A stretch of 64,000 nt of DNA from Rhabdothermincola salaria. Its GTDB lineage: Bacteria > Actinomycetota > Acidimicrobiia > Acidimicrobiales > Acidimicrobilacustridaceae. The translations under genes were made by a program, and so were the position numbers. Positions 30,629-49,199 of this stretch are shown here, in pieces. Numbering within the stretch: the stretch's first letter is position 1; every line of letters begins with the position of its first letter. Where the stretch lies: contig NZ_JAJQXW010000002.1 in NCBI RefSeq assembly GCF_021246445.1, positions 372,001 to 436,000 on the forward strand, in the 5' to 3' direction. A model generated the notes under the pieces. It was not told where the DNA came from. It ran no database searches and saw nothing but the letters and a program-made list of their open reading frames with translations.

Positions 30629-30638
30629 CGAGGCGACC

Positions 30639-32615: not shown

Positions 32616-32616
32616 G

Positions 32617-34698
32617 TCAGTGCCCCCCGGTGAGGGTGGTGGGGTCGGTGGTGGCGGCGCGGCCGGCGCGGTCGCCGACGGGTCCGCCGGCCAGGGCACC
32701 GGTGAGCACGCTGGTGCCGTGACCCGGGTCCGGGCCGATGCCCTCGACGGCGAGGGCGGCCCGCCGGGCCTCGAGGACGGCTTCGTGGACCGTGCGCGGG
32801 GCGATGGCGTCGCCGGCGCGGGCGTGGCGCTCGCCCGTGGCCGCCCACAACGTGAGGTCGGGGACGCGGTGCGACGCGTCGACGACGGCGACGCACGCCA
32901 CCGTGGTGGCGACCGATGTGTAGCGGTCCTCCAGGCGGGCTCCGTCGGCGTCGACACCACGGAGAGCCACCCGCTTGTGGAGGGTGACGCCGAGCTGGGC
33001 CAGGCGCACATTGGCGGGGGCGAGATCGCCGGAGCGCGAGAGCAGCTGGCCCCCGATGACGTCGGGGGTGCCCATCTCCACCGGGCGCCCGCCGAGGGCG
33101 AGGGACTCGGCCACGGACACGCCGATGGGCCCGCCGAGTGGATCCCACACGAGGACGGGCCCGTCCGGCAGGCCGCCGGTGACATCGCCGGCACCGAGGG
33201 CGGCGAGCACCTCGCCGGCCGAGCGGACGACGGCGCCGGCGGCCGTGTCGAAGGCGGGCGCCACGTCGGTGCCCCCCGTCGCCAGCACGACGCGGCTGCC
33301 GGCGGCCGAGGCCGCCTCCACCTGGTCCGGGGTGAGGTCGGTGTCGAGCTCGAGGACGACCCCCAGCCGGCGGCACTCGTTGTCCAGCCAGTCGGCCAGG
33401 CGCGCCAGGTGGTGGCGTCCGGCGCCGGCCGCGGCCACCCGCAACGAGCCCCCGAGACGATCGGTGCGCTCAACGAGGCGGACGGTGTGCCCGCGCTCGG
33501 CCAGGACACGCGCCGCTTCCAGACCGGTGACTCCACCGCCGACGACGAGCACGTCGGTGGCGGCGCCGGTGCCGGTGCGGGCCCCGAGGGGGTCGTGGTC
33601 GACGGTCTCGTGACCGGAGCGGGGATCGCCCACGCAGGTGACCAACGGGTTGCGGGCGTCGCGCACCTGGCAGACCTGGTTGCACAGGATGCAGGGCCGG
33701 ACCCGTTCGGGCCCGAGGCGGAGGTGGGCCACCAGCTCGGCATCGGCGATCTGGGCCCGGGTCATCTCCACCGCGTCGCACCGACCCTCGGCCAGTGCCG
33801 CCTCGGCCATGGCGGGGTCGACGATGGAGCCCTGGGCCACGACGACGACCTCCGGCGCCACCGCGTGCACCACCTCTCGAACCTGGCGGACCAGGTCGAG
33901 GTTGAAGCCGGGCTCGGTGTGGCCGTCGGGGCGAGTGGCGTTGACCGAGAAGATGGAACCCCGAACGACCACCAGGTAGTCGACGTGCTCGGCCAGGGCG
34001 GCGGCCACCTCAGCGGCCGACTCCGGGGTGAGCCCGGCCCACGGGGCCAATTCGTCGCACGACAGGCGCATGCCCAGCACCCGGTCGGGGCCGATGGCGG
34101 CACGCACGGCAGCGAGGACCTCGCGGGCGAAGCGGAGCCGGTCGGCGCCGTAGTCGTCGCCGCGCATGTTGGTGAGCCCGGAGAGGAACTGGCGGACCAA
34201 CGAGTACTGCCCGGCGTTCACCTCCACGCCGTGCAACCCGGACGAGGCCGCCAACGACGCCGCGTCGCCGAAGCCGGCGACGACCGCGTCGATGTCGGCT
34301 GCCTCCATCACCTTGGGCACCTCGCGGCTGTTCACCTCGGGCACCGCTGAGGGGGCCCAGAGCTCGCGCTGGCTGTAGGCCGACGACCCCTGTCCGCCGG
34401 CGTGGCCGATGGCGGCCAGGGCCACCGCGCCGTGGCGGTGGGCCGCCTCGGCCAACACGGCCCACCCCGGACCGCACTCACCGGCCAGCGGCGCGCGTTC
34501 GTAGGGCCAGTCGCTCGGGTGCACCGACGCCTCTTCGGCCACGACGACGCCGCAGCCGCCGGCCAGGCGGCGCTCGTAGTAGGCGAGGTGGCGTTCGGAG
34601 AAGGCCCGCCCCCGACCAAGGTTGGTCTCGTGGGGTCCGAACAGGATGCGGTTGGGTGCGGTGACCGGCCCGAGAGCGACGGGCTCGAGCAGCTTCAC
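32617..34698 (-). CDS. mycofactocin-system FadH/OYE family oxidoreductase 1
   Basis: NRILFGPHETNL, HAGGQGSSAYS, CILCNQVC, GGGVTG. Confidence 0.9.
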   Translation of the reverse strand: MKLLEPVALGPVTAPNRILFGPHETNLGRGRAFSERHLAYYERRLAGGCGVVVAEEASVHPSDWPYERAPLAGECGPGWAVLAEAAHRHGAVALAAIGHAGGQGSSAYSQRELWAPSAVPEVNSREVPKVMEAADIDAVVAGFGDAASLAASSGLHGVEVNAGQYSLVRQFLSGLTNMRGDDYGADRLRFAREVLAAVRAAIGPDRVLGMRLSCDELAPWAGLTPESAAEVAAALAEHVDYLVVVRGSIFSVNATRPDGHTEPGFNLDLVRQVREVVHAVAPEVVVVAQGSIVDPAMAEAALAEGRCDAVEMTRAQIADAELVAHLRLGPERVRPCILCNQVCQVRDARNPLVTCVGDPRSGHETVDHDPLGARTGTGAATDVLVVGGGVTGLEAARVLAERGHTVRLVERTDRLGGSLRVAAAGAGRHHLARLADWLDNECRRLGVVLELDTDLTPDQVEAASAAGSRVVLATGGTDVAPAFDTAAGAVVRSAGEVLAALGAGDVTGGLPDGPVLVWDPLGGPIGVSVAESLALGGRPVEMGTPDVIGGQLLSRSGDLAPANVRLAQLGVTLHKRVALRGVDADGARLEDRYTSVATTVACVAVVDASHRVPDLTLWAATGERHARAGDAIAPRTVHEAVLEARRAALAVEGIGPDPGHGTSVLTGALAGGPVGDRAGRAATTDPTTLTGGH

Positions 34699-34720
34699 GG
34701 GGTGCGGCCCTGCGCCATGC

Positions 34721-35908
34721 TCAGCCGCCCGACGGAGCGAGCGGGAGGAGGGTGCGCTCGGCCTGGCGGCCCCGTTCGGCGTCGAACGACGACCGACCCT
34801 TGCGGGTGAGGCTGACCGGCTTGGAGTGGTCGGCGCTGACGGTGGGGCGCACCACCTCGCCGTCGGCGGCGAGGGCGGCGAGGGCGTCCTCACCGTGGCC
34901 GAACACGCACTCCGGGTCGGGGGCGTCGAGGGGCAGGCCGGTGAAGAACTTGGCGGCCATGCACCCGCCTCCGCAGGCGTCGTAGCTGCCGCACGAGGCG
35001 CACGCGCCGGGCGACGACGGTTCGCGCAGCGAGGTGAACAGGTCGCTCGAGTTCCACACGGCGGCGAACCCGCCCTCGTCGCGGATGGAGCCGGCCTTGA
35101 ACTCGTCGTGGAGCACGAACGGGCAGGCGTAGACGTCGCCGACGGGGTCGATGAGGCAGACCACCCGACCGGCGCCGCACAGGTTGAGGCCGGGAAGGGG
35201 CTCGCCCAGCGCGGAGAGGTGGAAGAACGAGTCGCCGGTGAGCACGTGGGGGCGCTCGAGCAGCCAGTGGTAGAGGTCGCGCTGCTGCTGAGCGGTGGGG
35301 TGCAGGTCGTGCCAGGTCTCGATGCCACGGCCGGAGGGACGGAAGCGGGTGAGGCGCAGCTCGGCGCCGTACTCGTCGGCGAGGGCCTCGTAGGCGTCGA
35401 CCTGCTCGACGTTCTGGCGGGTCATGACCACGCTGAGCTTGAACGAGCCGAAGTCGGCGTCGCGCAGGTGGTCCATGGCCCGGCGCACCCGGGCGTGGGT
35501 GCCCTCGCCGCGCACGGCGTCGTTGGTGGCCTCGTCGACGCCGTCGAGGGAGATCTGGATGTCGACGTAGTCCATCGCCGCCAACCGGCGGGCGCTCTCG
35601 GCGGTGATGCGGCCGCCGTTGGTCGAGAACTTCACGCCGACGCCCTTGGCCACGCAGTACTCGACGATCTCGAAGAAGTCGGTGCGCAACATGGGCTCGC
35701 CGCCGCCGATGTTCACGTAGAACACCTGCATCTCGGCCAGCTGGTCGACGACGGCCTTCATCTCGTCGGTGGAGAGCTCGTTCGGGTCGCGGCGCCCCGA
35801 GCTCGAGAGGCAGTGCACGCACTGCAGGTCGCAGGCGTAGGTCCACTCCCAGGTGAGGCAGATGGGAGCGTTGAGGCCGAGGGTCAGCTCGTCGGTGAGA
35901 GCGGTCAT
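34721..35908 (-). CDS. mftC: mycofactocin radical SAM/SPASM maturase
   Basis: APICLTWEWTYACDLQCVHC (CxxxCxxC), NIGGGEP; SPASM CGAGRVVC...CASCGSYDACGGGC. Confidence 0.97.
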   Translation of the reverse strand: MTALTDELTLGLNAPICLTWEWTYACDLQCVHCLSSSGRRDPNELSTDEMKAVVDQLAEMQVFYVNIGGGEPMLRTDFFEIVEYCVAKGVGVKFSTNGGRITAESARRLAAMDYVDIQISLDGVDEATNDAVRGEGTHARVRRAMDHLRDADFGSFKLSVVMTRQNVEQVDAYEALADEYGAELRLTRFRPSGRGIETWHDLHPTAQQQRDLYHWLLERPHVLTGDSFFHLSALGEPLPGLNLCGAGRVVCLIDPVGDVYACPFVLHDEFKAGSIRDEGGFAAVWNSSDLFTSLREPSSPGACASCGSYDACGGGCMAAKFFTGLPLDAPDPECVFGHGEDALAALAADGEVVRPTVSADHSKPVSLTRKGRSSFDAERGRQAERTLLPLAPSGG

Positions 35909-36198
35909 GAAGGGTCCTTCGGGACGATGAACGATCCGGCGGCCAACGAGGTGAGGGCCTTCTCGAACGATGGCCAGCGGCGCTCGTCGAGGCCGGCAGC
36001 GGCGAACGCGTGACGGGCGTCGGGCGCCGCCTCCAGCCCTTCGACGACGGTGACGAGGTCGGGCGAGCGCAGGAACGTGAGGCGCCGGTTGCCGTAGTGG
36101 TAGGCGAGCGCGCCGAACGGCTCGGGCCGCAGGGCGACCCGTTCGTGCAATCGCCAGGGGCGGTCGGCGTCGAAGGTGGCGGTGACGGCGGTGCTCAT
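35905..36198 (-). CDS. mftB: mycofactocin RRE chaperone
   Basis: VALRPEPFGALAYHYGNRRLTFL; ATGA overlap with mftC. Confidence 0.96.
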   Translation of the reverse strand: MSTAVTATFDADRPWRLHERVALRPEPFGALAYHYGNRRLTFLRSPDLVTVVEGLEAAPDARHAFAAAGLDERRWPSFEKALTSLAAGSFIVPKDPS

Positions 36199-36247
36199 GC
36201 GGCGCCGGCACGAAGGACGGGGTCCCGCGTGCCTCGGGGCGGCTCGA

Positions 36248-36376
36248 TCAGTAGACGCCGCACATGCCGTCGATGGAGATCTCCTCGATGAGGAGCTCCT
36301 CTTCGACGACCTCGGGGTCGGCGGCGGTGTCGACCTCGGGCTCGGTGGCGTCGGTGCGCTCCATGGTCTGCTCCAC
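36248..36376 (-). CDS. mftA: mycofactocin precursor peptide (42 aa from GTG 36376, or 38 aa from ATG 36364)
   Basis: Not in the ORF track. Manual translation MEQTMERTDATEPEVDTAADPEVVEEELLIEEISIDGMCGVY* ends in the hallmark IDGMCGVY. Confidence 0.98.
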   Translation of the reverse strand: MEQTMERTDATEPEVDTAADPEVVEEELLIEEISIDGMCGVY

Positions 36377-36412
36377 GGGTGTCCCCCTCTGGACGAATCG
36401 GGCGAGTGGCCC

Positions 36413-36418
36413 ATCCTA
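36413..36418 (-). promoter_or_regulatory. -10 element TAGGAT for the mftA arm
   Basis: TANNNT 36 nt upstream of mftA, followed by a GAGGGGG RBS. Confidence 0.5.
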
Positions 36419-36457
36419 CCGGTGGCCCCCGTCGCGCTGGCCAGACGGGCGCCGTTC

Positions 36458-37459
36458 TCAGACCAGCGGGTGGTGGCCCGGGACCTCCACGTGCGGTGTG
36501 TCGAGGTACACCTTGGCCTCGGGCGAGCCCTGGAAGCGGCCGTGGCTCCACCGCACCTCGACGTGGCCCTCGACCACCCGGTCGACGTCGGCCTGGCGGT
36601 CGCGCACCACCGCACGCCATCCGACCTCGGGCTGCCCAGCCGACCGCCCGAAGGTGTCGAGGCTGCGCAGCTCGAAGGCCTGCACCCAGTCCCAGGTCGA
36701 CCCGATGCGCAGTCGCAGGTGCGTGCGACCGTCGGCTCCGAGCACGAAGTACGGGGCGTCGCCGATGCGCACCAGGCGCCAGAACATCCGCAGCCGGCGC
36801 CGCCGGTCGCCGAGGGAGGCGTCCCAGCGCCGGGCCGAGCCGGTCGCGACCGCGTCGCACAGGTGGGCCCAGGGGGCTCGCAGCTCGTCGGGCCAGGCGC
36901 GGCCCCGCAGCTGGCGCTTGAGCACCTCGCGATGGGCGCGGTCGAGGTCGTCGACGTGGTCGGGCAGGCTCGCGGCGCCCACGTGGTCGCGCACCGTGGC
37001 GTAGAGCATCTGGTACTCGGCCGGGGCCACCGTGGCGAACCAGTCGCCGCCGGAGCGCTCCTCGCCGACGAGCAGGCGGTCGAAGAGCCGGGCGGGGCCG
37101 GCGTTGACGGTGATCCTCGACAGGTACTTGCAGCTGACCTGGTACACGTGGTCGATGCGCAGGTCGGCGGGCACCACGTCGTCGCCGGGTGGCCGGTGCG
37201 GGCCCTTCCACTCCACCAGGCGGGGCGGGCGGCCCCGGAGGCCGTCGAGGGCGGCCAGGAAGGCCCGTCCGTTGGCGAAGGCGGTGGCGAAGGCGTCGTC
37301 GTGACCACCCTCCAGGCGGGCGGCGACCACGCGCTCCCAGGTCTGGTCGGGGACCTGGCGCAGCTCCCCGGGCCGTCGGGCCAGCGCGCCGTCGAGGTCC
37401 TCGGCCATGGTGCCGAGCGCGGTGGCCAGCTCGGTGATCTCGGTGAGCAGCGAGGACAT
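36458..37459 (-). CDS. putative PD-(D/E)xK-superfamily restriction endonuclease-like protein
   Basis: PADLRIDHVYQVSCKY resembles a D-x(n)-S-x-K nuclease site; starts 17 nt after a DNA MTase stop. The CDS is clear; the function is inferred. Confidence 0.55.
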   Translation of the reverse strand: MSSLLTEITELATALGTMAEDLDGALARRPGELRQVPDQTWERVVAARLEGGHDDAFATAFANGRAFLAALDGLRGRPPRLVEWKGPHRPPGDDVVPADLRIDHVYQVSCKYLSRITVNAGPARLFDRLLVGEERSGGDWFATVAPAEYQMLYATVRDHVGAASLPDHVDDLDRAHREVLKRQLRGRAWPDELRAPWAHLCDAVATGSARRWDASLGDRRRRLRMFWRLVRIGDAPYFVLGADGRTHLRLRIGSTWDWVQAFELRSLDTFGRSAGQPEVGWRAVVRDRQADVDRVVEGHVEVRWSHGRFQGSPEAKVYLDTPHVEVPGHHPLV

Positions 37460-37476: not shown

Positions 37477-38985
37477 CTAGGTGGGGTCGGTGTCGTCGGC
37501 GCGGGCCAGGTCGGCGTCGGTCCAGAAGCCGGACAGGGGCCCGGAGCGGTCGCCGGCGGCGTAGGCGGCCAGGCGGTCGAGGTCGCCGGCGCGACCCAGG
37601 TCGACCACGTCGAAGAGCACCGTCGGGCCGGCGGCGCGCAGGGCCACGTCGCCCTCGGCGTTGCGCTTCGGTCGGGCGGTGGTGAGCACGACGTAGCGAG
37701 CGGCGCCGTCGGCGGTGCCCCGCAACGCGCCGCGCACCGCCGCGGCCCGGCCGAGGGTGCGCCACACCACCTCGTTGCGCAGGAGCCCGCCGCGGTGGCT
37801 GGCGGCCGGGCCGGCGACGTCGAACCACCAGCGTCGCCCCGCCGCGTCGCGGGCGGTGAGCGTGACCGCCACCCCGCTGCGGGGCACCTTCACGCTGTGA
37901 CCGTCGACGCCGAACCCGGCCCGTTCGAGGGCGGCCTCGGCCCGCTTCGGGGCGGCCAGGCCGGGGTCGTGGGCGGGCTCGCCTCCACCCACCGGGTGCG
38001 CGGCCCCGTCTTCGCCGCCGCCGTACTCGCCGCCATTGGTGGCGTCGAGCTCCGCGGCGACCACCCTCTCGCGGGCGATGTCGACGTAGGTGGGGTCGAG
38101 GTCGTAGCCCACGTAGCGCCGACCCAGGCGAGCGGCGGCCGCGAGGGTGGAGCCGCTGCCCATGAACGGGTCGAGCACGAGGTCGTCGGCGAAGGTGTAG
38201 AGACGGATGAGCTTTTCAGGCAGTTCCACCGGGAACGGAGCGGGGTGGCCGACCCGGCGAGCACTCTCGGGGGGGATGGACCACACGTCGAGGGTGAGGG
38301 CCATGAAGTCGTCGGTGCCGATGGTGCTGCGGTGGGGCAGACCCTTGGTCTGGCGCTTCTTCGCCGACAGGGCCCGGTCGAAGCGGCCCTTGCTGGCGAT
38401 GACGATGCGCTCGGTGATGTCGCGCAGCACCGGGTTGGTGGCGCTGCGGTACGAGCCCCAGGCACAGGACCCGCTGGCCCCTTCGGCCTTCTGCCACACC
38501 ACCTCGCCCCGCAGCAGCAGGCCGAGGTCGTCCTGGAGGATGCGGATGACGTCGGCCGAGAGCGAGCGGTAGGGCTTGCGGCCGAGGTTGGCCACGTTGA
38601 CGGCGATGCGGCCACCCGGTTCGAGCACCCGGGCGCACTCGGCGAACACGTCGCGGAGCATCTCAAGGTACTCGAGGTACGAGGCGGGCACGCCGTCGCG
38701 TGCGAGCTCCTCCTCGTACTGTTTCCCGGCGAAGTAGGGGGGTGAGGTGACGACGAGGGCCACCGACCCATCGGCCACGGCGTCCATCCGCCGGGCGTCG
38801 CCGCACACGAACGGGTCGGCGACCGGCTCGGGGGAGGCCACGACGTCGTCGGTGGTCAGCTCCGGGGGACGGAACCGCCCGTAGAAGCCCGAGGCGTCGT
38901 GGCTCTCGCGCTTGGACACACCGAAGTTGGAGGTGGTCGTGCCGCGGCGACCGCGCGCTTCTGGATCGCCACCCTTGCCGGCCAC
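37477..38985 (-). CDS. beta-class amino (N4-C/N6-A) DNA methyltransferase with extra C-terminal domain
   Basis: Motif IV TSPPY N-terminal, HPAPFPVEL, motif I DPFMGSGST; ~150-aa C-terminal extension. Confidence 0.92.
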   Translation of the reverse strand: MAGKGGDPEARGRRGTTTSNFGVSKRESHDASGFYGRFRPPELTTDDVVASPEPVADPFVCGDARRMDAVADGSVALVVTSPPYFAGKQYEEELARDGVPASYLEYLEMLRDVFAECARVLEPGGRIAVNVANLGRKPYRSLSADVIRILQDDLGLLLRGEVVWQKAEGASGSCAWGSYRSATNPVLRDITERIVIASKGRFDRALSAKKRQTKGLPHRSTIGTDDFMALTLDVWSIPPESARRVGHPAPFPVELPEKLIRLYTFADDLVLDPFMGSGSTLAAAARLGRRYVGYDLDPTYVDIARERVVAAELDATNGGEYGGGEDGAAHPVGGGEPAHDPGLAAPKRAEAALERAGFGVDGHSVKVPRSGVAVTLTARDAAGRRWWFDVAGPAASHRGGLLRNEVVWRTLGRAAAVRGALRGTADGAARYVVLTTARPKRNAEGDVALRAAGPTVLFDVVDLGRAGDLDRLAAYAAGDRSGPLSGFWTDADLARADDTDPT

Positions 38986-40369: not shown

Positions 40370-41178
40370 CCGCACCGGAGCCCGTGGCCGTGATCACCGG
40401 TGCCGCACGCGGCATGGGTCGGGCCACGGCCGAGCGCCTCACCGCCGCCGGGTGGCGCGTGGCCCTGCTCGACCTGGGTGCCCCGTCCCCCGAACCGGGC
40501 ACCACCGACCTGCCCGAGCCCTACTGCCCGGCCACCCTCGACGAGCTCGCCGAGGCCGAGGCGGCCTGCGGCGAACGAGCCGAGTCCCATCTGGTCGACG
40601 TGCGCGACCAGGCAACCGTCACCACCGCCGTCGACTCCGTGGTCGCTCGCCACGGTCGCCTCGACGCCGTGGTGGCCGCGGCCGGCGCCGTGGCCGGTGG
40701 GCCACCGATCTGGGAGGCCACCGACGAGGTGTGGCACGCCATGATCGACGTCAACCTCACCGGCATGTTCCACCTGGTGCGGGCCACGGTGCCCCACCTG
40801 TTGGCCCGGCCCGAACCGCGCTCGGGTCGCTTCGTCGGCATCGCCTCCACCGCCGCCCACCACGGCCTGCCCGGCCTGGCCGCCTACAGCGCCTCCAAGC
40901 ACGGCGTGGCCGGCCTCGTCCGGGCCCTGGCAGCCGAGCTCGGCCCCACCGGCGTCACCGCCAACGCCGTCGCCCCCGGCTCCACGATGACCCACATGCT
41001 CCATGCCAGCGCCGCCATCTACGGCCTGCCCGAGCCGGGTTCGTTCACCCGCCAGACCCGCATCCAGCGCGCCATCGACCCCGACGAGATCGCCGCGGCC
41101 GTGGCCTGGCTGTGCACCGAGGCCCCCGGTGCCCTCACCGGCGCCGTGCTCGACGTCGACGGCGGGTTCCGCCCGTGA
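40366..41178 (+). CDS. mycofactocin-coupled SDR oxidoreductase
   Basis: TGAARGMG, an insertion after LLDL containing YCPATLDEL as in mft-type SDRs, YSASKHGV; ATGA overlap. Confidence 0.85.
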   Translation: MTAPEPVAVITGAARGMGRATAERLTAAGWRVALLDLGAPSPEPGTTDLPEPYCPATLDELAEAEAACGERAESHLVDVRDQATVTTAVDSVVARHGRLDAVVAAAGAVAGGPPIWEATDEVWHAMIDVNLTGMFHLVRATVPHLLARPEPRSGRFVGIASTAAHHGLPGLAAYSASKHGVAGLVRALAAELGPTGVTANAVAPGSTMTHMLHASAAIYGLPEPGSFTRQTRIQRAIDPDEIAAAVAWLCTEAPGALTGAVLDVDGGFRP

Positions 41179-41188
41179 CCGCCGCGCC

Positions 41189-42157
41189 GTGACCCTCGAG
41201 CTCACCAAGGCGGTGGTCGACGCCCTCGACGAGGCCATCGTCGGACGCCGGGGCGAGATCGAGGTGGTGCTGGCCGCCCTCGCCGCCGACCGCCACGTCC
41301 TGCTCGAGGGTCCCCCCGGCACCGGCAAGTCCACGCTGCTGCGCACCCTCGCCGAGGCGGCCGGCTTGGAGATGGTCTTCGTCGAGGGCAACGCCGAGCT
41401 CACCCCCGGTCGCCTCACCGGCACGTTCGATCCCGCCCGCGTGCTCACCGACGGCTACACCCCCGAGGTGTTCCTCGACGGGCCGCTCGTCGAAGCCCTG
41501 CGCACCGGGGCCCTGCTCTACCTCGAGGAGATCAACCGCGTCCCCGAGGAGACGCTCAACGTCGTCATCACCGCCATGAGCGAGCGCGAGCTGCACGTGC
41601 CCCGCCTCGGGAAGGTCGTGGCCGAGCCCGGCTTCCGGGTGGTGGCGGCCATGAACCCGTTCGACGCCATCGGCACGGCGCGCATCTCCTCCGCGGTCTA
41701 CGACCGGGTGTGCCGGGTGGCCATGGGCTACCAGGACGAGGCCGCCGAGCGCGAGATCGTGCACCGCGCCGACCCCGACGCCCCGCCGGCGCTGGTCCGA
41801 CGAGCGGTGCGCGTCGTGCGCGCCACCCGCGACCACGCCGACGTGCGGTTCGGCTCCTCGGTTCGAGGTGCCATCGACCTGGTGACCGTCGCCGACCGCC
41901 TGGCCCGGTTGCGCGACGGCGAGCCGACCGATGACGCCGTGGGCCTCGACGCCGCCCTGGCCGCCCTGTCCGGGCGCGTGCGCATCCGCGAAGGATGCGG
42001 CCGCTCAGCCGAGGACGTGGTGCGCCAGCTATGGGCCGAGCTCGCCGATGACCCGGCCGAGGCCGACGACGCCGCGGGCGACCGCGACGACACCGACCCG
42101 GGCGACCGGTCCCCCACCGGGGCCCCGACCCCACCGGGAGGGGCGGGAAAAGCCTGA
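41189..42157 (+). CDS. MoxR-family AAA+ ATPase (zero-frame product)
   Basis: Walker A GPPGTGKS, Walker B LYLEEINR, AMNP, SSVRGAID. Confidence 0.92.
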   Translation: MTLELTKAVVDALDEAIVGRRGEIEVVLAALAADRHVLLEGPPGTGKSTLLRTLAEAAGLEMVFVEGNAELTPGRLTGTFDPARVLTDGYTPEVFLDGPLVEALRTGALLYLEEINRVPEETLNVVITAMSERELHVPRLGKVVAEPGFRVVAAMNPFDAIGTARISSAVYDRVCRVAMGYQDEAAEREIVHRADPDAPPALVRRAVRVVRATRDHADVRFGSSVRGAIDLVTVADRLARLRDGEPTDDAVGLDAALAALSGRVRIREGCGRSAEDVVRQLWAELADDPAEADDAAGDRDDTDPGDRSPTGAPTPPGGAGKA

Positions 42158-42173
42158 CCCCCGGCGACGGGGG
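42145..42173 (+). other. predicted -1 ribosomal frameshift cassette: G_GGA_AAA, 6-nt spacer, CCCCCG-GCGA-CGGGGG hairpin
   Basis: In-phase X_XXY_YYZ heptamer at 42145-42151, one codon before the MoxR stop; hairpin at 42158-42173; the -1 frame is open to 43110. Confidence 0.75.
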
Positions 42174-43110
42174 CGACGACGACGCCGTCGACGAAGGCGA
42201 CGCCGCCACCGAGGCCCTCGACGACGCCCGCCGCCGCACCTCCTCACGGCGCGAGCTGGGACGCCACGACCACTTCGACGAGGTCTCCCCGGAGGTCGGC
42301 GCGCTCGACGAGGCCGCCTTCGACGACGCCCTCGAGGCCGACCCCGACGCCGCCCTGGGTCTGTTGGCCGATCTCACCGGCGCGACCGACGAACGCCTGC
42401 GGGCCCGGGCCCGACGCCTGGCCGGGCGACTAGCCGTCGATCTCGGTCGCACCGGACCGGTCCGCCGTCGAGGCGTCGGCCGGTTGCGGGAGGTCCCCGC
42501 CGACCGCGGGACGGCGGACCTCGACCTCGACCGGTCCCTCGACGCCCTGCTCAGCGCCCGGAGCCGGGGCGAGAGCCCCCACCTGGCCGACCTGCGCGCC
42601 CGCGACTGGGGCCGACCCGACCTGGCCGTGAGCCTGGTGGTGGACCGGTCGGGATCGATGGGCGGCGAACGGCTGGCCACGGCCGCCATCGCGGCGGCCG
42701 CCACGGTGCTGCGCGCCCCCACCGACTCGTCGGTGCTGGCGTTCTCCGACCGGGTGATCGTGGTGGCCCCCCAGGGTTCCCTGCGACCCGTCGACGCGGT
42801 GGTCGACGACCTGCTGTGCCTGCGCGGGCACGGGCCGACCGACCTGGCCCTGGCCCTGCGAGCCGCCCGCCACCAGCTCGAGCGCTCCGACGCTCGCCGG
42901 CGGGTGGCGGTGGTGCTCTCCGACGCCCGTCCCACCGCCGGTGGCGACCCGGCCCGCGACGCCGCCGCCCTCGACGAGCTGGTGATCGTCGCCCCTGCCG
43001 ACGACCACGCCGACGCCCGGGACCTGGCCGAGGCCGTCGGGGCCCGCTGGCTCACCCTCACCGGGCCGAGCGCGGTGCCCCAGGTGATGACCGACGCCTT
43101 CGCCGGCTGA
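42151..43110 (+). CDS. von Willebrand factor A (VWA, CoxE-like) domain protein, -1 frame relative to MoxR, no canonical start
   Basis: MIDAS DRSGS, GPTD, VLSD. The ORF track starts it at TTG 42364, but the frame is clearly coding from about 42154 (LTPGDGGDDDAVDEG...SRRELGRHDHFDEVSPEVG). Confidence 0.85.
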   Translation, partial: SLTPGDGGDDDAVDEGDAATEALDDARRRTSSRRELGRHDHFDEVSPEVGALDEAAFDDALEADPDAALGLLADLTGATDERLRARARRLAGRLAVDLGRTGPVRRRGVGRLREVPADRGTADLDLDRSLDALLSARSRGESPHLADLRARDWGRPDLAVSLVVDRSGSMGGERLATAAIAAAATVLRAPTDSSVLAFSDRVIVVAPQGSLRPVDAVVDDLLCLRGHGPTDLALALRAARHQLERSDARRRVAVVLSDARPTAGGDPARDAAALDELVIVAPADDHADARDLAEAVGARWLTLTGPSAVPQVMTDAFAG

Positions 43111-43129: not shown

Positions 43130-43171
43130 TTGCATGCTTTCGTCGCTCTCCAGCGCGACGAAAGCATGCAA
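43130..43171. repeat. 17-bp perfect inverted repeat TTGCATGCTTTCGTCGC-N8-GCGACGAAAGCATGCAA (REP-like)
   Basis: Read directly; intergenic between the VWA gene and mftE. Confidence 0.85.
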
Positions 43172-43243: not shown

Positions 43244-43954
43244 GTGTCGTCCCCCCACCGGCCGCTCGGCCACCTCACCTGGCCCGAGGTCGGGGCCGCG
43301 ACCGCCGAGCGACCGCCGGTGCTCTTGGTCCCCCTGGGCAGCACCGAGCAGCACGGACCGCACCTGCCCCTCGACACCGACACCCGCATCGCCGAGGCCC
43401 TCGCCCGGGCCGCGGCGGCGACCGTCTCCGGCGTGGTGGTGGCACCCGCCGTCGCCTACGGATCGAGCGGCGAGCACGCCGGCTTCCCGGGAACCCTCTC
43501 CATCGGACAGGAAGCGCTCGAAGCGCTCGTGGTGGAGCTGGTGCGCTCGGCCGACGTCTTCGGAGGCGTGGTCCTGGTCTGCGGTCACGCCGGCAACGCG
43601 GAACCGGTCGCACGGGCGGTGCGCACGCTCACCGGTGAGGGTCGGGCGGTTCGGGCGTGGTTCCCCCGGGTGGGCGACGGCGACGCCCACGCCGGACGCA
43701 CCGAGACCTCGATGCTGCTGCACCTCGACCCGTCGGTCGTGCAGATCGACCGGGCGGAGGTCGGCGCCACCGCTCCCGTGGCCGAGTTGATCGACGACCT
43801 GCGGCACGCCGGCGTGAAGGGGGTCGCCCCCAACGGCGTGCTCGGTGATCCCTCCGACGCCTCGGCCGACGAGGGCCGGCGGCTGGTGGCGGCCATGGTC
43901 GACGAGCTCACCGCCCTGCTCGCCGAGCTGACCCAGGGATGGTCGAGGCGGTGA
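43244..43954 (+). CDS. mftE: mycofactocin peptidase (creatininase family)
   Basis: PLGSTEQHGPHLPLDTD, YGSSGEHAGFPGTLS, GHAGN, DAHAGRTETS, NGVLGDP. Confidence 0.95.
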   Translation: MSSPHRPLGHLTWPEVGAATAERPPVLLVPLGSTEQHGPHLPLDTDTRIAEALARAAAATVSGVVVAPAVAYGSSGEHAGFPGTLSIGQEALEALVVELVRSADVFGGVVLVCGHAGNAEPVARAVRTLTGEGRAVRAWFPRVGDGDAHAGRTETSMLLHLDPSVVQIDRAEVGATAPVAELIDDLRHAGVKGVAPNGVLGDPSDASADEGRRLVAAMVDELTALLAELTQGWSRR

Positions 43955-45483
43955 GCGAGGACGCCGGCGGGCTCCCCACCGCGGGGGCGGAGCTGGCCGG
44001 GAGCGTGGTGGCACCCGATCCCTCGGTCCGCGCCAGCGACGACGGCACCGTCCTGGTGGGCGGCTCGCCTCTCCGGGTGGTGCGCCTCAGCCGCACCGGC
44101 GCCGACGTCGCCCGACGCCTCCTCGACGGCGCGCCCGTGCCGAGCGGCCCCGGCGCGACCTCCCTCACCCGCCGGCTCCTCGACGGGGGACTCGTCCACC
44201 CCGTCGTCGCCCCGGGCACCGGACCCCCGCCCTCGGCGGTCACGATCGTGGTGCCGTTGCGGGGCACGCCCACGCGCGGCCTGCTCGACGCCCTCCCGCA
44301 GAGCTCCTCGGAGGGGCGGGTGGCCGGGGTGGTCGTGGTCGACGACGCCAGCCCCGTCCCGGTCGCGGTGGCCGCCGAGGGCGGCACCGTGGTCCGCCGC
44401 GACACCAACGGTGGGCCCGGGGCCGCCCGCAACACCGGCCTGGCCGGGGTCGAGACCCCCTACGTGGCCTTCGTCGACGCCGACTGCGTCCCCACCCCGG
44501 GCTGGCTCGATGCTCTCCTCCCCCACTTCGCCGACCCCTTCGTCGCGGCCGCCGCTCCTCGCATCGTGGCGACCGACGATCCGGGCCCCGAGCCCCTCAC
44601 CACCCTCGCCCGCTACGAGGCCCACCGGTCGCCGCTCGACCTCGGGCCCCGCCCCGCCCGGGTGCGAGCCCGCACCCGGGTGTCCTACGTGCCGTCGGCC
44701 GCACTCGTGGTGCGCACCGACGTGCTGCGCGCCCTGGGCGGCTTCGACGAGGACATGCGGGTGGGCGAGGACGTCGACCTGGTGTGGCGCCTCGACGAGG
44801 CCGGCTGGACCGTGCGCTACGAACCCGGTGGCGAGGTGGCCCACGACCACCGCACGTCGCTCGGCCCCTGGCTGCGCCGTCGGTTCGACTACGGCACGTC
44901 GGCCGGCCCCCTCGCCGTGCGCCACCCGGGCGCGCTGGTCCCCGTCGAGGCGTCGACATGGAGCCTGGGCGTCTGGGGCCTGGCCGCCACCGGCCACCCC
45001 GTTCCGGCAGCAGGCGTGGCCGCCACGTCCGTCGGTCTGCTCACCCGCACCCTCGACGACGTGCCGGACCGGCTGCCGCTCGCCCTGCGCCTGGCCGGAC
45101 TCGGGCACCTGGGCGCCGGTCGGCTGCTGGCCGAGGCGGTCCTGCGGCCGTGGTGGCCGCTCGCCCTCGGCGCCGTCGTCGTCTCCCGCCGAGCCCGGCC
45201 CCTGGTCGCCGCCGCGGTGGTGGCGCCGTCGCTGTGGGAGTGGGCCCGCGACCGCCCCCCGCTCGATCCGGTGCGGTGGCTGGGATGGCGGGTGGCCGAC
45301 CACGTCGCCTACAGCACGGGGGTCTGGGCCGGTGCGATCAAGGCGCGGGTGGCCGAGCCGCTCGTCCCCGACCTCACCAGCTGGCCCCGGCCGAGCCGCT
45401 ACACGCGTTGGCGCACCCGACGCGCCACGACGACCGGATCCGGCCGGTTGGCGGTCCGTGGTCGAGATCAGCCCAGCTCGTAG
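43951..45483 (+). CDS. mftF: mycofactocin glycosyltransferase (GT2)
   Basis: LVGGSPLRVVRL, VVDDAS, GPGAARN, FVDADC, VSYVPSAA, VGEDVD; GTGA overlap with mftE. Confidence 0.95.
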   Translation: MSEDAGGLPTAGAELAGSVVAPDPSVRASDDGTVLVGGSPLRVVRLSRTGADVARRLLDGAPVPSGPGATSLTRRLLDGGLVHPVVAPGTGPPPSAVTIVVPLRGTPTRGLLDALPQSSSEGRVAGVVVVDDASPVPVAVAAEGGTVVRRDTNGGPGAARNTGLAGVETPYVAFVDADCVPTPGWLDALLPHFADPFVAAAAPRIVATDDPGPEPLTTLARYEAHRSPLDLGPRPARVRARTRVSYVPSAALVVRTDVLRALGGFDEDMRVGEDVDLVWRLDEAGWTVRYEPGGEVAHDHRTSLGPWLRRRFDYGTSAGPLAVRHPGALVPVEASTWSLGVWGLAATGHPVPAAGVAATSVGLLTRTLDDVPDRLPLALRLAGLGHLGAGRLLAEAVLRPWWPLALGAVVVSRRARPLVAAAVVAPSLWEWARDRPPLDPVRWLGWRVADHVAYSTGVWAGAIKARVAEPLVPDLTSWPRPSRYTRWRTRRATTTGSGRLAVRGRDQPSS

Positions 45484-47822
45484 CCAGCGTCGTCGAGGAG
45501 CTCGACGATGCGGTTCGGGGGCAGGTGCTGGTCGAGCACCCGGACGCCGAGGTGGGCGAGGGAGTCCTCGATGGCGCTGGTGAGCGCGGCCGGGGCACCG
45601 ATGGCGCCACCCTCCCCGACCCCGCGGTAGTCGATGCCTCCGGTGGGCTCGTGGTGGACGTGGCGCACCTCGATGGACGGGATGTCGGTGGTGGTCGGCA
45701 GGAGGTAGTCCATGAAGGTGGACGCCAGGTACTGCCCGTCGTCGTCGTAGGCCGAGCGCTCGAGCAGCACCGCGCCGATGCCCTGGGCCACCCCGCCGCG
45801 CACCTGGCCGTCGACCACCGCCGGGTTGATCACCGCCCCGCAGTCGCCCACCACCAGGTAGCGCAGGATCTGCACCAGGCCGGTCACGGGATCGACCTCC
45901 ACCGTGCAGGCGTGGGTGGCCACCGACCACGTGCCCTCGGCGGAGTCGAAGGTGGCCGACTCCTCGATGCCCGGTCGTCCGTCGGCGTTGGCCAGCCCGG
46001 GCCGGAGGTGGGCCAGGCGCCCGATCTCGGCCAGCTCGGTGCGCACGCTGGGCGCGCCTCGGGCGACCACCGCGCCGTCGACCAGCTCCAGGTCGCCCGG
46101 GGAGATCTCCATCAGCTCGGAGGCCACGTGCAGCACCCGTTCGCGCACGGCCCGGGCCGCGCCCACCACGGCCCCGCTGGCCAGGGTGGCGGCCCGTGAG
46201 CCCCCGGTGCCCACCAGGTTGAACGGCGTGAGCATGGTGTCGCCGTGCACCACCCGCACCCGGTCGAGGGCGATGCCGAGCTCGTCGGCGGCGAGCTGGG
46301 CCAGGGTGGTCTCGTGGCTCTGGCCGTGGGGCTGTTGGCTGGTGAACACCGTGACCGTGCCGTCGGGCTCGAGGCGGGACCGGGCCTCCTGCACGGTGCG
46401 GGGGGCGGCCATGATGCCCATGGCCCGGATGAGGCTGGGCGGCACGGGCGCCGGCTCGACCACGTTGGCCAGCCCGAACCCGAGCAAGCGGCCCTCGGCG
46501 CGCGCCTCGGCCTGGGCGTCCCGGAACGCGGGGAGGTCCATGGCCGCCACCGCGTCGTCGAAGGTGCGGCGGGGGTCGAAGCCCTGCAGCTCCACCCCGG
46601 TGCAGCTGGTGGTGGGAAACGACGCGGGGGTGAGCAGGTTGCGCTCGCGCACCGCCACCGGCTCGACGCCCATCTGCCGGGCGATGACGTCGAGCACCCG
46701 CTCGCGCACCCAGGTCTCCACCTCCCACGGCCCCCGGTAGGGGACGTAGGTGGCCTTGTTGGTGGTGACCACCACCGCCTCGAAGTCGAAGTGCTCGAGG
46801 CGGTAGGCGGCCGGGAGCAACGCCCGAACGATCGAGGTGTAGCCGGTGGTGGGGAACCCCACCTGGGGATAGGCGCCCTGGTCGAGGACCATGCGCACCC
46901 GCAGGCCGCGCAGCTCACCGTCGGGGCCGACCGCGGCCTCCACGTCCAGGCGCTCCTCGCGCGCCTGGCCCCCGACGGTGAGGTTCTCGACCCGATCCTC
47001 GATCCAGGCCACCGGCCGGCCGACCAGGAGGGCGGCGCCGGCCACCGCCACGTCTTCGCGGGCCAGGCCGCTCTTCTGCCCGAACGCCCCGCCGATGTCG
47101 CCGCAGCGCACTCGCAGGGCGTGGCCGGGCACGCCCAGCACGTCGGCGAGGTGCATGCGCAGGGCGTGGGGCGACTGGTGGCTGGTGTGCACGTCGAGAC
47201 CGCCACCGGACGGGTCGGGCACGGCGAGGATGCCCCGCCCCTCCATGGGCACGTTGGCGTGACGGTGCTGCACGAACCGCTCGCGCACCACGTGGGCGGC
47301 GCCGTCGAAGGCGCGCTCGGTGTCGCCGTAGCGGTGGGTGGAGCGGTGTACGACGTTGGTGCCCAGCTCGGCGAAGACCAGCGGGGCGTCGGGCTCCATG
47401 GCCCGGTCCATGTCGCCCACTCCGGGCAGGGGGTCGTAGTCGACCTCCACCAGCTCGGCGGCGTCCTCGGCCAGGGCCCGGCTCTCGGCCAGCACCACCG
47501 CCACCGGGTCGCCGACCAGCCGGACCACGTCGCGGGCGAGGGCCCCGAAGACGGGCAGGCGCAGATCGGCGGGGCCGGCGGGCTTCAGATCGGCCGCCAC
47601 CCGGGCCAGGTCGTCGGCGGTGAGCACCGCCACCACCCCGGGGCCGGCGAGGGCGTCGGAGACGTCGATGCCGAGCACCCGGGCGTGAGGGAAGGGGCTG
47701 CGCACGAAGGCGGCCTGCACCGTGTCGGGCACGGCGAGGTCGTCGATGTAGCGGCCCCGGCCGGTGAGGATCCGGGGGTCCTCCACCCGGTGCACGCTGG
47801 TGCCGGTGAGACGGGCGACCAC
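45468..47822 (-). CDS. xanthine dehydrogenase/CoxL-family molybdopterin-binding large subunit
   Basis: RVEDPRILTGRGRYIDD, GGAFGQK, PYRGPW, QGIGAVL, GVGEGG. Confidence 0.92.
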   Translation of the reverse strand: MVARLTGTSVHRVEDPRILTGRGRYIDDLAVPDTVQAAFVRSPFPHARVLGIDVSDALAGPGVVAVLTADDLARVAADLKPAGPADLRLPVFGALARDVVRLVGDPVAVVLAESRALAEDAAELVEVDYDPLPGVGDMDRAMEPDAPLVFAELGTNVVHRSTHRYGDTERAFDGAAHVVRERFVQHRHANVPMEGRGILAVPDPSGGGLDVHTSHQSPHALRMHLADVLGVPGHALRVRCGDIGGAFGQKSGLAREDVAVAGAALLVGRPVAWIEDRVENLTVGGQAREERLDVEAAVGPDGELRGLRVRMVLDQGAYPQVGFPTTGYTSIVRALLPAAYRLEHFDFEAVVVTTNKATYVPYRGPWEVETWVRERVLDVIARQMGVEPVAVRERNLLTPASFPTTSCTGVELQGFDPRRTFDDAVAAMDLPAFRDAQAEARAEGRLLGFGLANVVEPAPVPPSLIRAMGIMAAPRTVQEARSRLEPDGTVTVFTSQQPHGQSHETTLAQLAADELGIALDRVRVVHGDTMLTPFNLVGTGGSRAATLASGAVVGAARAVRERVLHVASELMEISPGDLELVDGAVVARGAPSVRTELAEIGRLAHLRPGLANADGRPGIEESATFDSAEGTWSVATHACTVEVDPVTGLVQILRYLVVGDCGAVINPAVVDGQVRGGVAQGIGAVLLERSAYDDDGQYLASTFMDYLLPTTTDIPSIEVRHVHHEPTGGIDYRGVGEGGAIGAPAALTSAIEDSLAHLGVRVLDQHLPPNRIVELLDDAGYELG

Positions 47823-47826
47823 CGGC

Positions 47827-48327
47827 TCAGCCCTCCCCGTCGAGACGCAGCAGCTCGGCGCCTCGGCGCACGCCCGCCACGATGCTCTCGTAGCCGGTGC
47901 ACCGGCAGAGGTTGCCGCCCAACGCCTCGCGGATCTCGGCGTCGTCGGGGTCGTCGTTCTCGGCCAGCAGCGCCACCGCGCTGATGAGCATCCCGGGGGT
48001 GCAGAACCCGCACTGGAACGCGTGCGCCTCGAGGCACCCGTGCTGCACCGGGTGCAGGTCGTCGGGGGTCCCGAGGCCCTCCACGGTGACCACGTCGTGG
48101 CCCTCGGCCTGCACCGCCAGCACCAGGCACGACCGCACCGGGCCACCGTCGAGAAGCACGGTGCACGAGCCGCACACGCCGTGCTCGCAGCCGAGGTGGG
48201 TGCCGGTGAGGCCGAGGGCGTCGCGCAGGGCGTCGGCCAGCGAGCGCCGAGCCTCGACGTGCACCTGCCGGTCCTCACCGTTCACCCGCAGCGACACCGT
48301 CGCCTCGAGGCGCGGTTCGGCGCTCAC
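47827..48327 (-). CDS. 2x[2Fe-2S] small subunit (CoxS-like)
   Basis: GCEHGVCGSC, QCGFCTPG, NLCRCTGY. Confidence 0.95.
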   Translation of the reverse strand: MSAEPRLEATVSLRVNGEDRQVHVEARRSLADALRDALGLTGTHLGCEHGVCGSCTVLLDGGPVRSCLVLAVQAEGHDVVTVEGLGTPDDLHPVQHGCLEAHAFQCGFCTPGMLISAVALLAENDDPDDAEIREALGGNLCRCTGYESIVAGVRRGAELLRLDGEG

Positions 48328-49199
48328 GACGCCGCTCCGGCCCGGCGAGCCGCGGTGGCCAGCACGCGGGCGGCCAACGCCCCGGCCACGCGACGCCGGT
48401 ACGACGCCGACGCGTGGAGGTCGTCGTGGGGATCGAGGCGGGCGGCGGCCGCCCGCCCCACCTCCCCGAGCACCGCGGCGTCCGGGGCCCGTCCGACCGC
48501 GGCGGCACCCGCCTCGACGTCGAGCACCGGGGTGCTGCCCGCCCCGAGGAAGGCCAATCGGAGCTCGGCCACCCGACCGTCCTCGTCGAGGCCCACCCGG
48601 GCTCCGGCGCCGACGAGCGCGAAGTCGCCGTGGCGTCGGCTCACCTCGGCGAAGGCGTCGCCCACCCTCGCCCCACGGGCCGGCAGCCGAACCGCCTCCA
48701 CCACCTCGTCGGGGGCCAGCACCGTCGTCAGATAACCGACGAAGAAGTCGCGGGCCGGCACCGACCTCGTACCGTCGGGGCCGCGCACGTCGATGGTGGC
48801 GTCGGTGAGCATCGCCACCGCGGGCAGCTCGGCGGCCGGGTCGGCGTGCGCCAGGCTGCCTCCGAGGGTGCCCCTCGTCCGGATGGCGGCGTGCCCGATC
48901 AGGGGGGCCACTTCGGCCAGCAGGGGGGCGTGGGCCGCCACCAGCGGATGGCGCTCGAGGGTGGCGTGGGTGACGCGAGCGCCGAGCACCACCTCGTCGC
49001 CCACGACGTCGATCGTGTCGAGGCCGGGCACCCGAGCCACGTCGACGAGCACGCTCGGACGACCCAGGCGCAGAGCCAGCACCGGCAGCAGGCTCTGGCC
49101 GCCGGCGATCACCTTGGCGTCCTCACCGGCCTCGGCGAGCCCCCGGACCACGTCGTCGAGCGTCTCGGGCGCGAGGTAGGCGAACGGTGGCGACTTCAC
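48324..49199 (-). CDS. FAD-binding medium subunit (CoxM-like)
   Basis: IAGGQSL, RGTLGGSLAHADPAAE, RRHGDFA. Confidence 0.95.
   Translation of the reverse strand: MKSPPFAYLAPETLDDVVRGLAEAGEDAKVIAGGQSLLPVLALRLGRPSVLVDVARVPGLDTIDVVGDEVVLGARVTHATLERHPLVAAHAPLLAEVAPLIGHAAIRTRGTLGGSLAHADPAAELPAVAMLTDATIDVRGPDGTRSVPARDFFVGYLTTVLAPDEVVEAVRLPARGARVGDAFAEVSRRHGDFALVGAGARVGLDEDGRVAELRLAFLGAGSTPVLDVEAGAAAVGRAPDAAVLGEVGRAAAARLDPHDDLHASASYRRRVAGALAARVLATAARRAGAAS

Follow-up and report, generated by a model that had tools for sequence, protein, structure and literature searches.

A probable programmed -1 ribosomal frameshift between a MoxR-class AAA+ ATPase and a VWA domain in mycofactocin gene clusters of Actinomycetota

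How is a VWA domain produced when its reading frame offers no usual start codon ahead of the conserved part of the protein? This question is raised by a locus in the mycofactocin (mft) gene cluster of Rhabdothermincola salaria, which lies in the 64,000-nucleotide (nt) stretch of DNA analysed here (contig NZ_JAJQXW010000002.1, positions 372,001 to 436,000; hereafter the window, from whose first letter all coordinates are counted). An AAA+ ATPase of the AAA_5/MoxR class is encoded there by the zero-frame open reading frame (ORF) at 41189..42157 on the plus strand, which begins with GTG at 41189, translates into 322 amino acids (aa) and ends with the codons GCG GGA AAA GCC TGA. The VWA domain is encoded in the -1 frame relative to the ATPase, and this frame is open from 42052 to 43110, preceded by TGA at 42049-42051. 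The answer that is considered highly probable, on comparative sequence evidence, is a programmed -1 ribosomal frameshift at the heptamer G_GGA_AAA, from which the locus would yield both the 322-aa ATPase and a 640-aa ATPase-linker-VWA fusion.

The heptamer is located at 42145..42151 (plus strand), where it forms an X_XXY_YYZ sequence on the codons GGA AAA, in phase with the ATPase frame. One codon past it stands the zero-frame stop TGA (42155..42157, plus strand), which ends the short product, and 6 nt past it begins a candidate stimulatory hairpin (42158..42173, plus strand) with a 6-bp G-C stem, the arms CCCCCG (42158-42163) and CGGGGG (42168-42173) enclosing the loop GCGA (42164-42167). This spacer is within the usual bacterial range, as 5-6 nt are common at bacterial frameshift sites according to the available part of PMC10732093. 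After a slip, AAA would be re-paired at 42148-42150 and AGC at 42151 would be the next codon, and the -1 frame from there (42148..43110, plus strand) would add 319 aa. Conceptual translation of the ATPase together with this part gives the 640-aa fusion, composed of ATPase, acidic linker, helical N-terminal part and VWA domain. The junction coordinates, the codons, the phase of the heptamer and the hairpin had been described in an initial annotation of the window and proved correct to the base when the sequence was re-read, and so did the -1 phase and the openness of the VWA frame from 42052 to 43110.

Runs of A were said to be rare in this DNA, and the genome counts bear this out. GGGAAAA has 13 copies on both strands of the 3,908,307-base genome (71.8% GC) against about 143 expected from base composition, and the tetramer AAAA occurs 358 times in the whole genome. 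The heptamer is, then, about ten-fold under-represented genome-wide, with 12 copies besides the one at the junction. In 10 coding sequences of the window, AAG is the lysine codon 23 times and AAA a single time, which is at the slip site. The genome has one tRNA-Lys(UUU) gene and one tRNA-Gly(UCC) gene. The frame break at the junction is not an assembly artefact, because independent metagenome contigs from 4 runs of 3 studies cross it with 2-6 substitutions, no gap and no indel. The check for an indel that had been proposed on raw reads was made on these assembled contigs, in which rare variants would not show.

The lack of a start codon in the VWA frame, likewise put forward in the initial annotation, is confirmed. 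The sole ATG, GTG or TTG of the -1 frame before the VWA domain is TTG 42364, and the region 5' of it is conserved across 17 aligned homologues. In an AlphaFold model of the -1 part (mean predicted local distance difference test, pLDDT, 87.7; predicted template modelling score, pTM, 0.80), TTG 42364 corresponds to residue 73, and helices are predicted with confidence for residues 18-101.

Homologous loci were gathered from two sources. A search of 41 related genomes gave 18 loci carrying ATPase and VWA parts, and a scan of one genome per species gave a further 80, which are the best 80 of 319 confirmed relatives among 600 pattern matches. Analysed were 90 loci (L001-L018, L021-L091 and L095), of which 82 are distinct after subtraction of 2 duplicates and of 6 loci without an ATPase at a contig end. 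Left out were L019 and L020 as weak second matches, and L092-L094 and L096-L100 as 8 weak VWA-only matches of 29-44% identity with no adjoining ATPase. Most of the loci belong to Acidimicrobiia (Iamiaceae, Microthrixaceae, Ilumatobacteraceae and others), and some to Nocardioides, Streptosporangiaceae, Mycobacteriales, Solirubrobacterales and Leekyejoonella.

Where the two parts meet, 66 of the 82 loci have the VWA domain in the -1 frame of the ATPase, 12 have it in the same frame and 4 in the +1 frame, and the same -1 arrangement persists down to 43-50% protein identity. Type A comprises 65 of the 82, in which a slippery or near-slippery heptamer lies in the ATPase phase and a -1 slip would enter the VWA frame. 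The heptamer is GGGAAAA in 50 of them, GGGGGAA in 5, GGGGGGA in 3, CCCAAAA and GGAAAAA in 2 each, and GAAAAAA, AAAAAAA and GCCAAAA in 1 each; 56 of these 65 sites are true X_XXY_YYZ sequences, and the other 9 would re-pair fully in the A site only. GGGAAAA is present in the linker of 59 of the 82 loci and never in the third phase, from which neither staying in the zero frame nor slipping to the -1 frame would lead into the VWA frame. The surroundings of the site are variable: among 63 sequences, conservation of the ATPase ends near residue 285 and no protein conservation was found from there to the heptamer. The check that had been proposed on homologous pairs, namely whether heptamer, spacer, hairpin and -1 phase are conserved, hence came out positive, with the heptamer in 65 of 82 loci and the hairpin (see below) in 66 of 77. 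In-phase X_XXY_YYZ, downstream structure, and conserved site and phase within variable flanks are all features of a -1 frameshift site.

Some counts were made on 70 type A loci, that is, on the 65 together with 5 phase-conflict loci (see below) whose site is in phase with the VWA frame. The zero-frame stop of these 70 lies 0-18 codons past the heptamer, and exactly 1 codon past it in 32. No ATG, GTG or TTG stands in the -1 frame at or before the site in 37 of the 70; in these 37 the first start follows 10-97 codons downstream, with two loci lacking any within 100 codons. In many loci the -1 frame opens merely 0-5 codons before the heptamer, which leaves almost no room for a shift elsewhere.

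A further 6 of the 82 loci (type B: L018, L067, L074, L077, L083 and L087) are in-frame fusions whose GGGAAAA shares the phase of the full-length frame. The -1 frame of these stops 1 codon past the heptamer in 5 (GGG AAA AGC TGA or TAA) and 6 codons past it in 1. Read from sequence, the one heptamer is found with two polarities, as a slip would give the long form in type A and the short form in type B, and two proteins are predicted either way. Retention of the signal in in-frame fusions is hard to explain except by selection for a two-product outcome. Whether other genomes carry such fusions had been posed as a check, and apart from these six among 82 loci, 43 natural fusions (594-661 aa), some of them from Geodermatophilus and Blastococcus isolates, are present in a large protein collection; the same collection has 1261 separate VWA homologues at E of at most 1e-20 among the candidates scored. 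Many of the 43 fusions keep a lone G-K-[A/G] in a lysine-poor linker, an observation made on protein sequences.

The hairpin recurs in a similar manner. In 66 of 77 loci, a perfect stem with the strength of 5 or more G-C pairs begins 4-9 nt past the site, against 5003 of 44,094 control positions within the same loci (11.3%). Of the 11 other sites, those of L018, L067, L074, L077 and L088 are followed by long imperfect hairpins that surpass all control windows in folding energy, those of L013, L053, L073 and L095 have weak stems only, and no hairpin was found after the site in L008 and L033. Stem sequences vary between lineages with compensating changes. For example, in a set of 39 distinct loop-anchored hairpins, C-G forms the third pair from the loop in 29, G-C in 4, and A-T, T-A and T-G in 2 each, and the fifth pair is G-C in 20 and C-G in 19; because the hairpins of this set were picked for their stems, the range of pair types carries information and the pairing rate does not. 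The pairs were counted on this gapless anchored set because MAFFT aligned the 42 loop-anchored hairpins out of register (alignment A2). The Shine-Dalgarno (SD)-like GGGAGG, which had been listed in the initial annotation among the elements of the site, fared differently. It is present at 42136..42141 (plus strand), 3 nt 5' of the heptamer, and GGAG or GAGG occurs within the preceding 19 nt at 40 of 77 sites, compared with 15.2% of 44,323 control positions. Despite this enrichment the distances are scattered (2-20 nt), and the element is therefore not counted as a conserved part of the signal.

The programmed -1 frameshift is favoured because heptamer, phase, spacer and hairpin are conserved, in-frame fusions exist, and the conserved, folded N-terminal part of the VWA protein is without a start; the comparative evidence hence supports the two products, of 322 and 640 aa, that had been predicted. 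At a site of this kind, the tRNAs in the P and A sites move back by one base and pair anew. In the window, most ribosomes would read GGA AAA GCC, terminate at TGA 42155 and release the 322-aa AAA+ ATPase. A fraction would pause over the GC hairpin 6 nt downstream, the P-site tRNA-Gly(UCC) would pass from GGA to GGG and the A-site tRNA-Lys(UUU) from AAA to AAA, one base back, and the shifted ribosomes would continue in the -1 frame to complete the 640-aa protein with ATPase, acidic linker, helical domain and a VWA domain with metal ion-dependent adhesion site (MIDAS). The rarity of AAA as a codon may slow decoding. If NorQ/NorD and CobS/CobT are a guide, free ATPase and fusion could co-assemble into a ring in which the tethered VWA domain, placed at the pore, would engage a client, and the efficiency of the shift would then fix the ratio of the two products. 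This functional model, drawn from analogy, is much less certain than the frameshift itself.

Several observations weigh against the frameshift. A phase conflict is seen in 6 of the 82 loci (L002, L007, L056, L057, L072 and L090), where the site is present and the nearest ATPase alignment is in another frame, and no candidate slippery site was found in 5 of the 82 (L078, L081, L084, L085 and L089). Sites other than GGGAAAA were chosen with relaxed patterns and by eye, which is a weakness, and related genomes are not independent samples. The stem overlaps the codons of a conserved P..GG peptide, which partly creates the stem itself. Owing to this overlap, the -1 frame was recoded synonymously with each locus's own codon usage as control, and the mean hairpin score was 17.4 for the real sequences against 9.5 for the recodings (77 sites). 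Locus by locus the test is moderate (p of at most 0.05 in 24 of 77, median p 0.086), and the result is a clear shift from the null that is not decisive for single loci. Similarly, the minimum free energy of the 48 nt past the site has a median rank of 0.109 among control windows and a rank of at most 0.05 in 24 of 77, a ranking that discriminates weakly in GC-rich DNA.

The remaining points of this kind bear on the alternative that survives best, improbable as it is: two ordinary genes, with the VWA gene starting alone, either by termination-reinitiation at CTG 42154, which overlaps the TGA, or at TTG 42364. The -1 phase would then be the usual 4-nt stop/start overlap. Some canonical start is present far upstream in the -1 frame in 33 of the 70 type A loci. 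The stop overlaps a -1-frame CTG (NCTGA) in 32 of the 70, and it overlaps a -1-frame ATG in a true ATGA in three loci (L066, L073 and L090); to judge from these overlaps, re-initiation may take place at such loci. Gene callers also treat the VWA part as a gene of its own, of 248 aa from TTG 42364 in the window, and its homologues are annotated as separate VWA proteins. Against two genes, the stop stands 4-18 codons past the heptamer with no overlapping start in 36 of the 70 type A loci, and it is the heptamer that is conserved and not a start codon. Coupling of this sort leaves unexplained why 6 in-frame fusions hold the heptamer and an immediate -1 stop. A strong hairpin at the would-be start would hinder initiation, and starting at the TTG would delete 72 conserved residues that are modelled as helices.

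Less probable still is transcriptional slippage, in which RNA polymerase slips on the A run and produces mRNAs with one A more or less. About 7-9 A or more are needed for it, and the run is just 4 A here and in 59 of the 82 loci, with GGGGGGA or GGGGGAA used instead in some lineages; only a few homologues have runs of A6-A7 (L006, L029). The available text of PMC3711429 does report that poly-A runs drive realignment in some genes and that longer A runs give more shifting in chlD cassettes, but an in-phase X_XXY_YYZ followed by a hairpin at 4-9 nt has the features of ribosomal slippage. It is scarcely credible that the break stems from faulty assembly or sequencing, or from a recent mutation that made a pseudogene of an originally fused gene. 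This reading could appeal to the natural in-frame fusions, to the extra frame breaks inside the domains of five loci and to one A of difference between the runs of L007 and L006, but it has to face the same -1 arrangement in 66 of 82 loci down to 43-50% protein identity, a break that always falls at the same heptamer, contigs of 4 runs and 3 studies that match the window gap-free, and ATPase and VWA halves that both stay conserved.

Individual loci deviate in ways of their own. The five loci with additional frame breaks within domains are L028, L072, L082, L090 and L091, which are probably long-read assemblies, judging from the contig names. L007 has the slippery run A5 (about 1447-1460) where its relative L006 has A6 (about 1450-1462), and its VWA frame is +1. 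L002, from the window's genus, keeps heptamer and hairpin (about 1431-1462) with the ATPase domain in frame with the VWA domain, the frame changing within about 25 nt upstream of an otherwise intact site. The deviations of L007 and L002 may be homopolymer assembly errors or real variants. L078, from a Leekyejoonella isolate, resembles a plain fusion without a slip site, and the Solirubrobacterales homologues (L084, about 2950-2990; L085, about 2900-2930; L081; L089) lack any recognisable slippery heptamer, and their junctions are -1, +1 or in frame. In three Actinomycetes loci, L066 (2326-2380), L073 (2917-2970) and L090 (2903-2960), the stop overlaps a -1-frame ATG, GGGGGAATGA, and an 11-bp GC hairpin follows 6 nt later in L066 and L090, with a weak stem only in L073. 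Frameshifting and coupled initiation may coexist in these three.

What kind of proteins would the frameshift join? The ATPase has the Walker A motif GPPGTGKS and the Walker B motif LLYLEEINR, after which follows an unconserved acidic Pro/Gly-rich tail; GPPGTGKS and LLYxEEINR are kept across 63 homologues. Pfam assigns it to AAA_5 (2.6e-27, 96 bits, residues 36-173), with weaker matches to AAA_3 (2.1e-14) and bpMoxR (1.1e-9). The best matches among PDB sequences are the AAA modules of midasin (3e-44), followed by NorQ (4e-14) and CbbQ (5e-11). The VWA part matches VWA_2 (7.1e-9) and VWA_CoxE (8.3e-9). Its motif D-R-S-G-S at 42643..42657 (plus strand) is DxSxS in alignment A1, where D166, S168, S170, T231 and D259 are invariant, and these residues we take to be the MIDAS motif from what is generally known of VWA domains. 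For the VWA model, Foldseek places NorD chains of NorQD complexes on ranks 1 to 5 (E about 1e-8), and ranks 6, 10, 13 and 16 are MIDAS domains of Rea1/MDN1. The pair hence has AAA_5/MoxR motifs, an adjacent VWA protein, intact MIDAS positions and a NorD-like fold, as MoxR-class AAA+ proteins with a VWA partner do.

A chelatase role was considered and rejected. PF01078 (Mg_chelatase) aligns with residues 17-55 of the ATPase only (29.8 bits). In the test with TIGR02031/TIGR02442, the BchD-ChlD model reached 38.9 bits against a cut-off of 499.55, and the Cob-chelat-sub model reached 27.9 bits on the ATPase and 24.2 bits on the VWA part against 779.45. ChlI/BchI are absent among the 36 PDB sequence matches of the ATPase, and no CobN/ChlH (PF02514) match was found in the organism's own genome (97.8% complete), where positive controls were matched. 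By its sequence motifs and modelled fold, the pair is best described as NorQ/NorD-like and midasin-like, not as a member of the ChlD family. It may work as NorQ/NorD or CobS/CobT do, with homology suggesting that the VWA domain binds the ATPase ring.

The genes around the pair suggest what it may act on. The initial annotation had placed it inside the mycofactocin cluster, and the gene order confirms this: on the same strand follow one another an mft electron transfer flavoprotein (ETF) beta subunit, an mft short-chain dehydrogenase/reductase (SDR), the ATPase/VWA pair, MftE and MftF, with MftC and MftB on the other strand. The upstream neighbour is a mycofactocin-coupled SDR oxidoreductase at 40381..41178 (plus strand, start not fixed; TIGR04504, 318.7 bits against a cut-off of 250), whose stop lies 10 nt before the ATPase start. 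Two mycofactocin oxidoreductases of the old yellow enzyme (OYE) type and mft ETF subunits are also near the pair in the window. The nearest upstream gene on the strand of the pair could be assessed in 77 loci, and in 62 of these it is an N,N-dimethyl-4-nitrosoaniline (NDMA)-dependent zinc alcohol dehydrogenase (Zn-ADH; 51) or a mycofactocin SDR (11); five of the Zn-ADH neighbours were checked and scored 523-535 bits with TIGR03989 (cut-off 440). Several of the other 15 loci have MftE or MftF beside the pair. Both TIGR03989 and the SDR clade were linked to mycofactocin through non-exchangeable nicotinamide adenine dinucleotide (NAD) (Haft 2011, PMC3023750), in a paper whose text nowhere contains the words ATPase, von Willebrand or chelatase. 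Neither the ATPase nor the VWA part scores above the cut-off of any NCBIfam model, and no curated family model among these marks the pair as mycofactocin-associated.

The link with mycofactocin is also seen in the distribution of the VWA family. Among 201 genomes of the class, each at least 85% complete, MftC is above cut-off in 43, of which 35 have the VWA family and 8 do not, and it is not above cut-off in 158, all of which lack the family (one of the 201, G222, is flagged unpublished and counts only in this double-negative cell). All 35 of the 35 genomes with the VWA family are hence MftC-positive, and the 8 MftC genomes without the pair all belong to one family. The pair lies at most 25 kb from mftC on one contig in 27 of the 35. 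The VWA-positive genomes are not independent events, because all of them fall in one order.

A molybdenum-enzyme client, which the initial annotation had offered as one option, did not hold up. The window does have a molybdenum hydroxylase on the minus strand at 45468-49199, adjoining mftF, with a large subunit like CoxL or glyceraldehyde dehydrogenase (529 bits) and a flavin adenine dinucleotide (FAD) subunit (222 bits), and its CoxL-like gene lies 2.4 kb downstream of the pair. No CoxL-like match was found near the pair in any other locus within 3-kb flanks, and the conserved neighbour is a mycofactocin-type dehydrogenase; this client was rejected as its gene is near the pair in the window only. 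Gene context points instead to a mycofactocin-dependent nicotinoprotein dehydrogenase, an SDR here and an NDMA-dependent Zn-ADH elsewhere, as the likely client. A more far-reaching idea, which is tentative and rather doubtful, is that the frameshift sets the stoichiometry of a bacterial 'mini-midasin', an AAA_5 ring with one or few MIDAS-tethered subunits that would serve as a dedicated activase or maturase of these dehydrogenases, the ratio of the two products being the selected trait. If this were true, the ring could, for instance, link them to mycofactocin, or insert or reset their non-exchangeable NAD(H). The polarity flips, in which fusion or truncation would come from frameshifting at the same heptamer, would then show that the ratio is selected and not either product alone.

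Other features of the cluster are recorded here as well. On the minus strand, 29400-37300 holds mft ETF-alpha, the FadH/OYE oxidoreductases 2 and 1, MftC and MftB, and a DNA-methyltransferase-like ORF at 37477-38985 (E 7e-15, far below cut-off) lies between these minus-strand mft genes and the plus-strand genes. Between the VWA stop (43110) and MftE there is an inverted repeat at 43130-43171, AT-richer than its surroundings, with 20-nt arms, TTGCATGCTTTCGTCGCTCT and AGCGCGACGAAAGCATGCAA, that are 95% complementary with 2 nt between them; its 15-nt core has no other mismatch-free copy in the window. The repeat may serve as an operator or form a hairpin in the RNA. Inside it, at TTG 43130, begins the longest MftE ORF, and the family model aligns from residue 46 only; the true MftE start is probably later. 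The MftE and MftF ORFs overlap by 16 nt (43939-43954).

Few chromosomal programmed frameshifts are known in bacteria, the list being dnaX, prfB, insertion sequences, chlD and a handful of others. The locus described here would add a large and deeply conserved frameshift family in high-GC Actinomycetota, with a signal of heptamer and hairpin as in textbooks and with both polarities side by side. It also corrects annotation, as gene calling now truncates the VWA genes at the N-terminus (to 248 aa here). With regard to mycofactocin, it points to a candidate AAA+/VWA remodeller, so far unstudied and tightly linked, adjoining NDMA-dependent ADHs and SDRs, and the maturation of nicotinoproteins or their coupling to mycofactocin becomes directly testable. 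No paper describing the mft-linked ATPase/VWA frameshift was found in the literature searched, the published chlD gene-set lists, which possibly bear on novelty, being outside that search. Frameshifting that yields AAA+ and AAA+-VWA proteins is itself already known from chlD; the present family differs in falling outside ChlD, in its signal, in its pathway and in showing both polarities.

The chlD precedent, cited in the initial annotation, is real: according to the available parts of PMC3711429 and PMC9227772, one chlD locus gives AAA+ and AAA+-VWA proteins by frameshifting, with reporter-validated efficiencies of 10-63% on A7-A11 runs (PMC3711429), and later work widened its range to many taxa, among them organisms that lack chlorophyll or B12 pathways (PMC9227772). 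As far as those accounts go, the present locus resembles chlD in its predicted AAA+ and AAA+-linker-VWA products, a mostly -1 shift in the linker, a downstream RNA structure and the existence of fused homologues. It resembles it also in the acidic/Pro-rich linker, the VWA domain with MIDAS and the annotation of the two parts as separate genes; homologues of the pair are even labelled 'Mg-chelatase subunit ChlD' by JGI. Unlike chlD, the ATPase is of the AAA_5/MoxR class and not Mg_chelatase, the signal is G_GGA_AAA with a GC hairpin where the validated chlD signals in those accounts are A7-A11 runs, and the context is that of mycofactocin-dependent dehydrogenases and not tetrapyrrole chelation.

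Among AAA+ proteins with a VWA partner, a VWA domain docks at the pore of the AAA+ hexamer in NorQ/NorD and likewise in CobS/CobT, as far as the accessible text of the two reports goes (PMC13036017; bioRxiv 10.64898/2026.10.09.757910). NorQ is the best bacterial match of solved structure to the ATPase, and NorD gives the best matches to the VWA fold. In contrast to both systems, whose partners are separate polypeptides from separate genes, the VWA domain here is apparently without its own start and fused to the ATPase, and the proposed client is a dehydrogenase and not nitric oxide reductase (NOR) or CobN. A similar gene set has been described in Rhodococcus qingshengii IGTS8, a mycofactocin-containing actinobacterium in which a transcriptome study notes an operon of MoxR/CoxE/ThcE orthologues, with the MoxR and CoxE-type genes clustered with that of an NDMA-dependent alcohol dehydrogenase (PMC13689224); compared by description and not by sequence, it shares with the present locus a MoxR and a CoxE-type VWA protein beside an NDMA-dependent ADH, and the available part of that paper makes no mention of frameshifting for the operon. 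Midasin/Rea1 shares the domain order of AAA_5, acidic (D/E-rich) linker and MIDAS and provides the best PDB sequence matches to the ATPase, but it has six AAA modules per chain and acts in ribosome biogenesis, whereas a single module per chain is present here and a ring would need several chains.

With regard to the signal, GGGAAAA has been annotated as a -1 slippery sequence in an actinobacteriophage tail-chaperone gene (PMC11749239, in the part available). A close parallel is dnaX of E. coli, whose tau and gamma products, as the available text of PMC3711429 describes them, likewise arise from a heptamer and a 3' hairpin, share an N-terminus and are made at a fixed ratio, sometimes with an SD-like element upstream. 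The heptamer here is G_GGA_AAA instead of A_AAA_AAG, and the SD-like element is not conserved. The polarity in the window is the reverse of that of dnaX, as the shift would make the long form, whereas the six type B homologues follow the exact dnaX logic, in which a shift would lead to an immediate stop.

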